DNA of 32,000 nt from an uncultured Helicobacter sp. (GCF_944326445.1 NZ_CALVDZ010000001.1); one strand, 5' to 3'; shown: positions 28,466 to 31,179, counted from the stretch's first letter. Program-made: numbers and translations. Notes: generated by a model not told the origin, from the sequence alone.

Positions 28466-30448
28466 ATGACAATTTTTGGCATAAATATCCTCTTCACACT
28501 CTTTATGATTGGACTCTTCATATGGGACTACAAAAGCTATGCGCGCGGGATTCACAAGGATTTTAAGTCCATCATTATGAGCACGGGAGTGCTAGGGACT
28601 TTTGTGGGGATTTTTGTGGGGCTTTTGGAGTTTGACACCGCGCAGCTAGAGAGCTCCGTGCCCCTGCTGCTTGATGGGCTAAAAACAGCCTTTTACACAT
28701 CGATTTTGGGTATGGGGCTCGCGATTTTGCTCTCAATCATCCAAAAGCGCGCACCCATAAAAAGCGATGAAGAGAGCAACCTAGAATACCTCGCCGCTCA
28801 AGCCCAGCACTTAGCGCATTTAGGCGTGCTGCCACGCATTCACACGCACCTAAACTCCCTGCCCACCACAGATGAGCTCCACAGCCTCTATGAGCGCAAC
28901 AATACCTTTGTCCAAGCCCAATTTTCCCTTATCAACCACACCCTAGAGCAAGCCGTCTCACAGCTCGCCAAAGGCGCGTCCCAAGAGCTTATTGCAGCCT
29001 TAGAATCTGTGATAAAGGATTTTAATGCCAATTTGCAAAATCAGTTTGGCGAGAATTTTAGGGAGCTAAATAGTGCGGTAGCAAAGCTCCTGCAGTGGCA
29101 GGAGGAGTATAAGGGCTTTGTGCAAGAGAGCAAGGCATTGCTAAAAAGCACCCAGCAAACGCTCCAGCACGCCCAAGACGCCCTCACCCATAGTGCCAAA
29201 AGCCTGCATAACATAGCCGAGCAAAACGCCAAGGCACAGGAATTCTACACAAACAACCTACGCCTTTTGCAATCCTGCCAATCCACCAACCAACAGCTAG
29301 AATCTAACCTCGCAGCCATTGCTAGTCTGCAGCCAGATTCACAGCAATGCCTTGAAAATCTCCAAGTGTTTTTCGCGCGCGCCAAAGAGGGCAGCGAGAC
29401 GGCTAAGGCAGAGATTCACACGCTGATAGAAGGCATAGAAGCCTATAGCAAATCCCTTAGTCAAAGCCTGCAAAACCACCTCCAAGAGAGCGCAACAGAG
29501 CTTAGGCAGAGCGTGGATTCACACACAAGCCTGCTTGCCACCACCCTGCACACTCATAGAGAATCTCTCGCACAGCTAGGCGATGAGAGCCTCTCAAATC
29601 TCAAATCTTTTAGCAAAGATATGCTAGCCCACAGCACGCGGAGTGTGGAATCTCTGCTAAAAGATTCACTACAAGCACTCCAAGGCAGCTTTAGAGAGCT
29701 TATGCAGCACACAGCCTCGCTTGCTAGGGACTTTGGGAAACAGGCAAAGGGGAGTTTAGATTCGCTTTTCGCACAGATTGAAAGCCTTCAAAGAGAGAGC
29801 CACGCGCTCCACACACAGAGCCTTGAGGGCTTTGCGCAGCTAAAAGATACGATCATCTCACAGCACCAAAAAATCCTAGAGCTTTTTTCCACGCAGCTCT
29901 TAGCCCTGCAGCAAAAGCACCAAAAAGCCCTAGATAGCGCACTTAGCAAGGATTTGCAAACCTATCGCACGAGTATAGATTCACTCACGCAAGGCATCAC
30001 AGAGGCTAAGATTCAAAGCCTCGAGCTAAGCAAAAGCCTGAGCGCAAACCTCCAAGAGCAGCACCAGCACACAAGCAACCACCTCAAATCCCTAGCCCTA
30101 GAATACCTCAAGGTGCTCCAAAAACTCAGCAAAGAAACTCTGCGCCTGCCTAGAGAATCTAGCGCGCAGATGATTGCGGAGTTTGGGGAGTTTCAAAAAC
30201 AGATCATAGAATCTATGCGCCAAACTCAAGGCGGCATAGAGCACAACGCTGCGCAGATAAGCCATCTGTATGAAGCTCTCGGGCAACATATGCGCCAAGC
30301 CCTGCAGGATAATGCCGCGCTCTCGCACGATATGCGAGATTCGCTGCGCGATCTCGATAAGGCGATGAGTGCGAGCGTGGATAGCTTTTGGCAGAATTAT
30401 GAGTGGTTTTTGGAGCGTATCAAAGACATTATGGGCACAAGGCGATAA
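28466..30448 (+). CDS. MotA/ExbB/TolQ-family channel protein with a predicted cytoplasmic coiled-coil tail of about 560 aa (ZorA-like)
   Basis: Three N-terminal TM helices in about 95 aa. TM2-TM3 (GVLGTFVGIFVGL...LDGLKTAFYTSILGMGLAILLSII) parallel the ExbB motif GLLGTVFGIM...ALKATAAGLFVAIP encoded 1.3 kb upstream. The remainder is Q/L/S/E-rich helical sequence. AAGGA upstream. Confidence 0.7.
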   Translation: MTIFGINILFTLFMIGLFIWDYKSYARGIHKDFKSIIMSTGVLGTFVGIFVGLLEFDTAQLESSVPLLLDGLKTAFYTSILGMGLAILLSIIQKRAPIKSDEESNLEYLAAQAQHLAHLGVLPRIHTHLNSLPTTDELHSLYERNNTFVQAQFSLINHTLEQAVSQLAKGASQELIAALESVIKDFNANLQNQFGENFRELNSAVAKLLQWQEEYKGFVQESKALLKSTQQTLQHAQDALTHSAKSLHNIAEQNAKAQEFYTNNLRLLQSCQSTNQQLESNLAAIASLQPDSQQCLENLQVFFARAKEGSETAKAEIHTLIEGIEAYSKSLSQSLQNHLQESATELRQSVDSHTSLLATTLHTHRESLAQLGDESLSNLKSFSKDMLAHSTRSVESLLKDSLQALQGSFRELMQHTASLARDFGKQAKGSLDSLFAQIESLQRESHALHTQSLEGFAQLKDTIISQHQKILELFSTQLLALQQKHQKALDSALSKDLQTYRTSIDSLTQGITEAKIQSLELSKSLSANLQEQHQHTSNHLKSLALEYLKVLQKLSKETLRLPRESSAQMIAEFGEFQKQIIESMRQTQGGIEHNAAQISHLYEALGQHMRQALQDNAALSHDMRDSLRDLDKAMSASVDSFWQNYEWFLERIKDIMGTRR

Positions 30449-30450
30449 AT

Positions 30451-31179
30451 ATGGACAAAAAATCCTCGCATAATCATTGGATTAGTATCTCTGATATGAT
30501 GGCAGGGATTATGATGATTTTTTTGCTCATTATGATCTCTTTTATGCTGCTCTCATACAAAAACCAAGAGGAGCTAAGCAAGCAAAACAAAATCCTAAGT
30601 GAGATCAATGAAAAAATGCGCTCTATCGCCCAGCATTACTCCAACCTCCAAGCCGAGTTGTATGTGGATTTGCAAAAGGAGTTTGCCAAGGATTTAGCGC
30701 GCTGGGACGCGCAGATAGATATGGACAATACGATACGATTTAGAGAACCTGAAGTGCTCTTTGATACCGGCGATAGGTATGTCAAGCAGAGGTTTAAGGA
30801 TATTTTGGATGATTTTTTCCCGCGCTATGTGCGCATACTCTCACTCCCCAAATACAAGACAAATATCGAGGAGATACGCATCGAGGGGCACACCTCAAGC
30901 AGTTGGCAGAGTGCGAGCACTTTGGAGAGCAGGTATCTGGGGAATGCAGAGCTCTCGCAGGCTAGGGCGTTTGAGGTGCTCAAATACTGCTTTAACCAAA
31001 AGGCTATAGATTCACAAAAAAATTGGCTCATTGAGGTGCTGCGCGCCAATGGACTGAGCTTTGCTAAACCGCTAGAAGATGAGAGCAAATCGCGGCGCGT
31101 GGAGTTTCGCGTGATCACAAAGGCGGATAAAAATCTCCAAGCCATCGTGGATTTGAGCAAGGAGTTTGGGGCAAAATAA
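30451..31179 (+). CDS. MotB/OmpA-family peptidoglycan-binding partner (ZorB-like)
   Basis: The ATG at 30451 lies 2 nt after the upstream stop. N-terminal TM with an embedded Asp (HWISISDMMAGIMMIFLLIM), as in MotB. C-terminal OmpA-like motifs IRIEGHTSS, NAELSQARAFEV, RRVEFRV. Confidence 0.7.
   Translation: MDKKSSHNHWISISDMMAGIMMIFLLIMISFMLLSYKNQEELSKQNKILSEINEKMRSIAQHYSNLQAELYVDLQKEFAKDLARWDAQIDMDNTIRFREPEVLFDTGDRYVKQRFKDILDDFFPRYVRILSLPKYKTNIEEIRIEGHTSSSWQSASTLESRYLGNAELSQARAFEVLKYCFNQKAIDSQKNWLIEVLRANGLSFAKPLEDESKSRRVEFRVITKADKNLQAIVDLSKEFGAK

Follow-up and report, generated by a model that had tools for sequence, protein, structure and literature searches.

A type II ZorA-ZorB-like motor pair without linked ZorE at a conserved core-genome locus of the Helicobacteraceae

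The stretch of DNA analyzed here (the window; 32,000 nucleotides, uncultured Helicobacter sp., GCF_944326445.1, NZ_CALVDZ010000001.1) carries two adjacent genes, which we call A and B, whose products are homologous to ZorA and ZorB, the core pair of the Zorya anti-phage systems. The pair descends from the type II ZorAB core but is without the two features that define such systems, a linked ZorE and an accessory distribution. With both lacking, it is not classed here among the type II Zorya systems, and the lineage to which it belongs is a ZorE-less, core-genome ZorA2B2 variant. In the current models of Zorya, perturbation of the envelope makes ZorB engage the peptidoglycan, ion flow then turns ZorA together with its tail, and soluble nucleases are recruited (PMC11946911). 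Type II systems recruit the nickase ZorE, and ZorAB II alone does not protect E. coli (PMC11890865). How ZorAB senses the attack and what the spinning tail does are the open parts of this mechanism, and all earlier work takes ZorAB to be inseparable from nuclease partners. On balance, we regard the pair as probably a ZorE-independent, vertically fixed type II derivative in which a conserved box and a conserved tip of the ZorA tail address an unlinked partner, a retained, lineage-wide role being likelier than that of a mobile defence module. We found no description of the Helicobacter pair in the searchable literature on Zorya in Helicobacter or on orphan or stand-alone ZorAB.

The assignment to type II is carried by several independent profile and structure matches. 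The PADLOC ZorA2 profile (PDLC00638) matched A with an E-value of 2.7e-50 over residues 9-498, and the ZorB2 profile (PDLC00641) matched B with an E-value of 3.5e-79, whereas the type I and type III Zorya profiles gave far weaker scores on both proteins. The best matches in the PDB were to 8VVI, the type II ZorA5B2 of Sulfuricurvum kujiense solved by electron cryo-microscopy (PMC11890865), with chain F aligning to A residues 1-253 (E = 2.9e-24) and chain A aligning to B (E = 1.6e-39). Compared with the annotated plasmid-borne pair of E. coli, A is 29% identical to ZorA2 over 426 amino acids (aa) and B is 40% identical to ZorB2 over its full length. The two proteins are clear type II ZorA/ZorB homologues at the level of sequence; since the NCBIfam equivalog scores fall far under their cut-offs (117 versus 700 for A and 175 versus 400 for B), they are divergent members of their families rather than equivalogs. 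The first-pass annotation of this DNA, made from the sequence alone, had called the pair ZorA/ZorB-like, and these matches agree with it and narrow the call to ZorA2/ZorB2. It had also pointed to a MotA/ExbB/TolQ channel signature in the second and third transmembrane (TM) helices of A. Here the Pfam MotA_ExbB profile itself stays below threshold (18.7 bits over residues 37-103, gathering score 22.9); with the ZorA2 and 8VVI chain F matches, the channel relationship is nonetheless far better than chance. Two counter-cases named in that annotation do not hold when profiles are applied. The best flagellar MotB and MotS NCBIfam models gave B only 19-27 bits against cut-offs of 259-312, and chemoreceptor or SMC-like profiles matched A at noise level only.

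Gene A has its three hydrophobic segments at residues ~3-21, 36-55, and 72-92, all within the first ~95 residues. The loop between TM1 and TM2, of ~15 residues, is rich in lysine and arginine, the loop between TM2 and TM3 is acidic, and the basic sequence QKRAPIK follows TM3. Because of this distribution of charge, the remaining 560 residues of A would lie in the cytoplasm, as the positive-inside rule had suggested at first reading. The membrane domain had also seemed much smaller than that of canonical ZorA; it is small, but not unusually so, since this is the type II architecture, and the membrane region of S. kujiense ZorA II is likewise limited to approximately residues 1-100 (PMC11890865). 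In an alignment of 20 sequences that includes canonical ZorA2, Thr45 in TM2 and Thr78 and Ser79 in TM3 are invariant, and these are candidates for a polar ring around the ZorB aspartate. The tail is rich in leucine, serine, glutamine, alanine, and glutamate, with just four prolines in 560 aa, and is conserved most visibly in two places. The membrane-proximal box at residues 151-215 has the motif LAKGASxELIxALExVIxDFNxNLxxQFGxNFxELNxAVxxLLxWQxxY, which is also found in canonical ZorA2. At the tip, Phe641, Tyr645, Phe648, and Leu649 are invariant in the alignment, ZorE-linked ZorA2 included, and the Helicobacteraceae proteins read DYEWFLxRI(K/R)(D/E)xxGxR.

Over its whole length, the tail has the character of a long helical rod. 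An AlphaFold2 monomer of A built from the 20-sequence alignment had low confidence (mean predicted local distance difference test score 60.4, predicted template-modelling score 0.25), and only its secondary structure was used; beyond residue 100, this model is ~93% helix with five short breaks. It accords with the earlier description of three TM helices packed into ~95 aa and followed by ~560 aa of helical sequence. The hydrophobic period of the tail is 3.65 residues (spectral power 5.5, shuffle maximum 2.2), and all 17 Helicobacteraceae homologues tested gave 3.64-3.66 residues, or ~11/3, at 2.5-8 times the shuffle maximum. Such a period fits what a right-handed coiled coil would show, and the tail of E. 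coli type I ZorA has been modelled as a right-handed pentameric coiled coil of ~70 nm (PMC11946911). If each chain makes a single pass along the rod, the 560-residue tail would be ~80 nm long. Under the same assumption, direct calculation gave rods of 73-118 nm for homologues, and extrapolation to the bilis-group proteins of 1120-1228 aa would give ~150-170 nm. Across the Helicobacteraceae clade the whole protein measures 590-1228 aa and the tail from ~500 to 1130 residues, with the change in length confined to the tail middle, whereas ZorA has 345-490 aa in the nearest ZorE-linked relatives of our data set, 550 aa in E. coli (ZorA2), and 378 aa in S. kujiense (ZorA II; PMC11890865). At 660 aa, A of the window is just moderately long, and the expansion is a property of the whole clade.

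Gene B begins with an ATG at 30451, 2 nt past the TAA of A and 7-10 nt downstream of an AAGG, and its length of 242 aa equals that of its orthologues and of the gene call on the source contig. The spacing of +2 nt seen here becomes -1, a 1-nt overlap, in many relatives, and the two genes appear to be translationally coupled. The TM segment of B holds the sequence SISDMMAG, which includes Asp15. In the HMMER alignment to 8VVI chain A, this residue aligns with Asp21 of S. kujiense ZorB II, a critical residue of that protein (PMC11890865), and it is invariant in 54 Helicobacteraceae sequences. The C terminus matched Pfam OmpA with an E-value of 5.7e-08 (33.4 bits, above the gathering score of 27.2). 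Its motifs IEGHTS, LSQARA, and RRVEF are kept in Helicobacteraceae and in canonical ZorB2, and GHT, LSxxRA, and RRVEF of B are invariant. The start 2 nt past A, the TM aspartate, and the OmpA-like C terminus of B are thus all as first described. Taken with the homology to a solved 5:2 complex, Asp15 of B and Thr45, Thr78, and Ser79 of A provide the sequence prerequisites of a 5:2 motor.

ZorE, the expected effector, was sought with three query proteins from a family of ~280-aa open reading frames (ORFs) that lie beside ZorB in non-Helicobacteraceae loci; two members of this family scored as PADLOC ZorE2 (E 1e-39 to 1e-46). With tblastn at E <= 1e-3, ZorE was found in 21 of the 23 non-Helicobacteraceae loci, either after zorB or between zorA and zorB. 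The same search found it neither in the window, nor in the source contig for 10 kb on either side, nor in any of the 57 Helicobacteraceae loci with flanks of ~8 kb. Neither the window nor the 10 kb that follow it yielded a homologue of any Zorya effector. A profile of six ZorE sequences, run against 5.8 billion proteins, retrieved 74 close relatives, none of them named Helicobacter and most of them unnamed, which is a weak negative because of the word prefilter. When all ORFs within ~6 kb of A-B were clustered across the 57 loci, no conserved third gene emerged. The gap between B and rpmH is only 56 bp and holds no third Zorya gene, and the other genes of the window are core genes (among them aspartokinase, HobA, HolB, FolP, XseA, an aldolase, EF-P, SmpB, dynamin-like GTPases, a radical-SAM protein, and a formate-dehydrogenase-type operon). 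The absence of a linked effector, noted at the outset, is therefore borne out. Defence-system finders that demand complete operons will miss such pairs.

Two clade-specific neighbours were considered and rejected as general partners. One is a protein of ~545 aa encoded directly after B in six H. rodentium-related loci (L023, L030, L031, L032, L039, and L048; positions 11159-12808 in L023), which looks like a type I methyltransferase fused to a specificity domain (PADLOC mad2 7e-25, MTase_I, Specificity_I); it is possibly a clade-specific defence neighbour. The other is a membrane protein of ~220 aa confined to the H. bilis clade; in that group (L040, L041, L049, L067, and L069) a conserved 212-234-aa protein on the same strand lies directly before a 1165-aa A gene. 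As for the canonical type II loci, zorABE has been described as their gene order, and surveys have selected systems by type-specific gene order (PMC11946911). In eight of our loci (L059-L062, L064, L066, L080, and L083), ZorE lies between the other two, as zorA-zorE-zorB. In Candidatus Thiovulum (L072) and in a Campylobacterales metagenome-assembled genome (L085), a ZorA2 of 463-465 aa and a ZorB2 occur with ZorE undetected nearby and form a branch of their own in the B tree. These may be a second, independent effector-less lineage, and effector loss may then not be unique to the Helicobacteraceae clade.

The distribution of the pair was followed in 57 Helicobacteraceae species genomes and 23 non-Helicobacteraceae loci, the loci being found by two exact peptide patterns. 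The source is a metagenome-assembled genome (ENA ERZ24773540), to which Candidatus H. avicola, H. equorum, and their relatives are the nearest species. The order smpB-exbB-exbD-A-B is seen in most of the 57 genomes, including the equorum, cinaedi/japonicus/marmotae, and pullorum/rodentium/ganmani groups, Wolinella, and other Helicobacteraceae, and rpmH-rnpA follows directly in the equorum and cinaedi/japonicus/marmotae groups. The bilis/trogontum/muridarum/aurati group has A-B at a locus without exbBD upstream. In a midpoint-rooted neighbour-joining tree, the Helicobacteraceae B proteins group as a single clade nested within ZorB2, with recognizable cinaedi, bilis, and pullorum/rodentium groups that resemble the accepted species groups. 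Distances between B proteins correlate with those of ExbB (r = 0.86), ExbD (0.89), and SmpB (0.76), with a Mantel p of 0.001 in each case, and the mean pairwise distance is 0.35 for both B and ExbB. The pair does not stand out in GC content or skew. Gastric Helicobacter species are absent from the best 120 homologues of A or B, even though H. pylori is heavily sequenced. A tblastn search of phage and plasmid collections with B returned only canonical ZorB2 at <= 47% identity, none of it from Campylobacterota. Canonical zorB2 lies on plasmids of Escherichia, Vibrio, Paracoccus, and others, not of Helicobacter, and in E. coli a conjugative plasmid carries the zorA2-zorB2-zorE operon amid defence and insertion-sequence genes. 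By these comparisons, A-B does not appear to have the accessory, patchy distribution typical of defence systems. The simplest history is a single ancient establishment of the pair after exbD, followed by vertical descent and by loss in the gastric lineage. We prefer gastric loss to a gain in the present lineage because the pair is syntenic, monophyletic, co-diverging with ExbB, ExbD, and SmpB, and free of compositional anomaly. Mapping across the Helicobacteraceae thus found the pair to be core and vertically inherited, a situation that the first-pass annotation had itself named as counting against its proposal. As a separate observation, Helicobacter sp. MIT 14-3879 encodes two different homologues of B, with 57% and 52% identity to B of the window, which suggests that it has a second ZorAB-like pair.

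The rates of substitution point to a functional pair under purifying selection. Ratios of nonsynonymous to synonymous change (dN/dS) were calculated against the four closest species and are approximate, as dS was near or above saturation (>1) in most comparisons. B has a dN of 0.04-0.065 and a dN/dS of 0.035-0.07, equal to or below the values of exbB, exbD, smpB, and rnpA. Constraint within A is strongest in the TM domain, the box, and the tip (residues 601-660), with a dN/dS of 0.03-0.18, the box being lowest at 0.03-0.04, and the tail middle evolves faster yet still under purifying selection (0.10-0.17). Amino-acid identity follows the same pattern, at 56-69% for the middle versus 77-91% for the ends of the protein, and at 83-88% for the tip among the closest relatives. 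Essentially every untruncated locus has the two ORFs intact.

From these features, we propose that A and B would together make up a 5:2 rotary unit of the inner membrane driven by ions, probably protons; a proton drive has been suggested for the S. kujiense ZorA5B2 complex (PMC11890865). By homology to that solved complex, five A subunits with three TM helices each, including Thr45 and Thr78/Ser79, would surround two B helices that carry Asp15, and the OmpA-like domains of the B dimer would anchor the unit to peptidoglycan. The five 560-residue tails could bundle into a right-handed coiled-coil rod reaching into the cytoplasm. If the engagement of peptidoglycan by B changed, ions would begin to flow and the A ring would turn together with its tail; the box and tip of the tail would pass the signal on to a cytoplasmic partner, which is presumably not ZorE and is not encoded next door. 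We infer the A5B2 stoichiometry, the rotation, its trigger, the partner, and the biological role by analogy with known motors.

Compared with the type II ZorA2-ZorB2 motors (S. kujiense 8VVI, E. coli ATCC 8739, and the plasmid-borne zorA2-zorB2-zorE), the Helicobacter pair has the same compact three-TM ZorA with the box, the tip, and a long helical tail, the same TM aspartate and OmpA-like domain in ZorB, and the same arrangement of adjacent, apparently coupled genes. However, it has no ZorE and occupies a fixed core locus, whereas the canonical systems are patchy and are found on plasmids or in defence islands. Type I ZorAB (E. coli 8QYD/8QYK and Shewanella 8VVN) is a 5:2 peptidoglycan-anchored motor like the one predicted here, with a pentameric right-handed coiled-coil tail of ~70 nm; the tail of A is comparable in length and has the ~11/3 period. 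Its sequence match is weak (E ~1e-3 for A and 3.6e-4 for B), the membrane and periplasmic portion of its ZorA is much larger, and it uses ZorC and ZorD, which are absent here.

All prerequisites of the motor thus appear to be retained, and the known output is missing. We favour a lineage-wide role for the ZorE-independent derivative because of its family-wide fixation, core locus, and housekeeping-like rate and because no nuclease is linked to it. This role could be that of an exapted envelope-to-cytoplasm sensor or motor, or that of a permanently fixed innate defence with an effector in the core genome. More tentatively, and with less confidence than we place in the derivative as such, ZorA5B2 may here be a domesticated motor, a core, effector-independent, peptidoglycan-coupled rotor with a rod of 80-170 nm and a housekeeping task or, if the tree is rooted elsewhere, the living cellular ancestor of Zorya. 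Possible tasks are signalling of envelope integrity or peptidoglycan state, spatial organization of a cytoplasmic or nucleoid partner, and control of DNA entry. If true, domestication would give this family of motors its first role outside defence; under the other root, the pair could be a living example of a cellular ancestor from which Zorya was built by adding nucleases. The motor is kept under strong selection in at least 57 species-level genomes, including those of the human and animal pathogens H. cinaedi, H. bilis, and H. pullorum and that of Wolinella succinogenes, a model organism. It draws attention to a conserved envelope protein complex of enterohepatic Helicobacter that H. pylori lacks, and it offers a natural experiment on what the motor does alone or with a core partner and on whether tail length matters.

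Several points weigh against this reading. By analogy with ZorAB II, which without ZorE is unprotective in E. coli, the ZorE-less pair would be one without demonstrated activity. The tail middle diverges fast and the length of A varies two-fold; a fast, length-variable tail suits a precise housekeeping geometry poorly and could instead reflect an arms race. The tip motif is common to ZorE-linked ZorA2, and the same kind of partner could therefore persist. The exclusion of ZorE reaches only ~8-10 kb from the pair, not whole Helicobacter genomes. The named hits of the exact-pattern scan did not include H. hepaticus or H. canis, and the pair may not be present in every enterohepatic species. The direction of change, ZorE lost or never present, rests on a midpoint-rooted neighbour-joining tree, and the saturation of dS makes the dN/dS values approximate.

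Some of these points are what would be expected of a working type II Zorya defence with an effector in trans, be it a ZorE encoded elsewhere or another core nuclease or restriction-modification component that the tail recruits. No function other than defence has been demonstrated in the family, and defence depends on the ZorA tail, on ion flow, and on the binding of ZorB to peptidoglycan (PMC11890865, PMC11946911). The tail box and the tip motif F..DYE.FL shared with ZorE-linked ZorA2, together with the fast, length-changing tail middle, would suit such a system, as would the methyltransferase/specificity fusion after B in the H. rodentium-related loci, although that neighbour is limited to a single sub-clade. 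An unlinked effector would, however, be without precedent among the known Zorya systems, the surveys of which selected by conserved gene order (PMC11946911). ZorE is missing from the surroundings of the pair in all 57 loci, the retrieved ZorE homologues include no named Helicobacter, and family-wide synteny with housekeeping-level conservation of B is unusual for defence genes. We therefore consider a trans-acting effector possible but doubtful.

It is improbable that the pair is a paralogous stator, either of the flagellar MotAB type or as an extra Ton/Tol motor working with the adjacent ExbB-ExbD. The pair has kept its linkage to exbB-exbD in many loci (exbB in 43 of 57), and weak matches to MotB/MotS and MotA_ExbB profiles were obtained. 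The flagellar motors MotA5B2, PomAB, and MotPS resemble the predicted ion-driven 5:2 architecture and have the TM aspartate of the B subunit and its OmpA-like anchor, but the profile scores of B lie an order of magnitude under the MotB/MotS cut-offs. MotA has four TM helices, a large FliG-binding cytoplasmic domain between TM2 and TM3, and no long tail; A has three TM helices, a TM2-TM3 loop of ~15 residues, and no such large domain. ExbB5D2 and TolQ5R2 have a similar TM2/TM3 channel motif, and ExbB-ExbD is adjacent in most genomes. Their ExbD and TolR partners, however, carry no OmpA domain, whereas B has one and not the ExbD/TolR fold, and their output goes to periplasmic TonB or TolA, not to a cytoplasmic rod. 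Moreover, the clade of H. bilis, H. muridarum, and H. aurati keeps A-B without exbBD upstream, and in H. pylori ExbB3/ExbD3 function without an A-B pair, forming a complete Ton motor with the unlinked TonB1 (PMC13367063).

The first-pass annotation had itself taken 27883-31241 for a recent 3.3-kb accessory island between exbD and rpmH with an element resembling a miniature inverted-repeat transposable element at its left edge; H. pylori exbD3 does end its operon, HP1441-HP1446 (PMC13367063), gastric species are missing from the best 120 homologues, and a dispersed repeat lies in the exbD-A spacer, but the island is refuted by the gene order common to Wolinella and most enterohepatic lineages, the monophyly of B, its co-descent with ExbB, ExbD, and SmpB in the Mantel tests, the normal GC content and skew, and the repeat-free spacer of the closest relatives, and we give it very little credence. 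Equally implausible is a decaying remnant of type II Zorya left without current function after the loss of ZorE: ZorAB II alone is inactive in E. coli (PMC11890865) and ZorE is absent here, but the ORFs are intact at a dN/dS of 0.04-0.18, 54 sequences show no change in the aspartate, the polar residues, or the peptidoglycan-binding motifs, and the tail has grown longer rather than eroded.

Table 1 Features of the A-B locus, with positions counted from the first nucleotide of the window
Feature	Position	Strand	Evidence
exbB and exbD	27029..27475 and 27487..27882	+	Pfam MotA_ExbB 1.6e-28, ExbD 3.6e-19
Enlarged spacer between exbD and A	27883..28465		Repeats; no Rfam match
Gene A, ZorA2-like subunit, 660 aa	28466..30448	+	ORF; matches to PADLOC ZorA2, 8VVI_F, and E. 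coli ZorA2
A residues 1-100, three predicted TM helices	28466..28765	+	Hydropathy, loop charges, invariant columns, sub-threshold Pfam MotA_ExbB
A residues 151-215, conserved membrane-proximal tail box	28916..29110	+	Near-invariant and invariant columns common to canonical ZorA2; low dN/dS
A residues 216-600, tail middle of variable length	29111..30265	+	Length variation among homologues, lower identity, hydrophobic period
A residues 601-660, conserved tail tip	30266..30445	+	Alignment; identity to closest relatives
Gene B, ZorB2-like subunit, 242 aa	30451..31179	+	Matches to PADLOC ZorB2, 8VVI_A, and E. coli ZorB2
B residues 10-34, single predicted TM helix with Asp15	30478..30552	+	HMMER alignment to 8VVI_A; invariance
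B residues ~104-225, OmpA-like peptidoglycan-binding domain	30760..31125	+	Pfam OmpA; conserved motifs
rpmH (L34)	31236..31376	+	ORF; synteny; followed by rnpA at 31385-31798

The pair lies between exbD and rpmH as originally placed, with an upstream spacer that indeed seems empty of genes. No credible ORF and no Rfam family was found in these 583 bp (Rfam scan of 26000-32000, E <= 0.1), and a 110-aa ORF with a TTG start at 28047-28379 was rejected as a gene, lying as it does inside a repeat-rich spacer that is absent from the closest relatives. In the closest species (L007-L009), the exbD-A spacer measures only 42-76 bp. The spacer of the window holds short GATTCT-rich repeats and a dispersed repeat of ~160 nt (27890-28046), an 85% identical copy of which occurs at 19808-19973. 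The mobile-element-like sequence reported at the left edge is thus real as a dispersed repeat, but it sits in a lineage-specific spacer and not at the edge of an island. Since the pair occurs in the closest relatives without the repeat and with just 42-76 bp of spacer, the repeat is later than the pair, and the enlargement of the spacer is a later, lineage-specific insertion into a pre-existing junction. Elsewhere in the window, arrays of the GATTCT-rich motif occupy at least two more intergenic regions, at ~4520-4940 and ~24860-25350, and the copy at 19808-19973 lies between two other genes. A scan of 27400-31450 gave 10 promoter-like sites against 4.5 expected, with terminator-like sites at chance level.

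Around A-B, only exbB, exbD (39 of 57 loci), smpB (33 of 57), and two further upstream genes recur. The genes downstream vary: 14-15 loci have rpmH-rnpA-yidC, and the others have transporters, ung, a copper ATPase, flagellar genes, or further genes. By their position beside smpB, exbB-exbD of the window look like the counterparts of H. pylori ExbB3/ExbD3. HP1447 of H. pylori we take to be rpmH.

Further features of the window lie apart from the pair. Within a core region that is otherwise well annotated, three ORFs gave no Pfam match at E <= 1e-3, at 9147-10139 (330 aa), 15671-16057 (128 aa), and 16237-16914 (225 aa). A radical-SAM/SPASM gene on the minus strand (25350-26408) separates the formate-dehydrogenase-type operon from smpB. 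Of the fetched loci, only L008 and L010, from the closest relatives, have a counterpart, and that of H. equorum (L010) looks fragmented. Two tandem, overlapping genes at 202-2445 and 2442-4265 encode dynamin-family GTPases (Pfam Dynamin_N 1e-30 to 1e-31), with weak PADLOC matches to LeoA/LeoBC. Finally, 20238-20792 and 20814-23057 form a single frame joined by the TGA at 20790-20792 in the context CARV-TGA-HSPTVAG. This TGA would appear to encode selenocysteine in a molybdopterin subunit of the formate-dehydrogenase type, a gene which ORF callers have broken in two.

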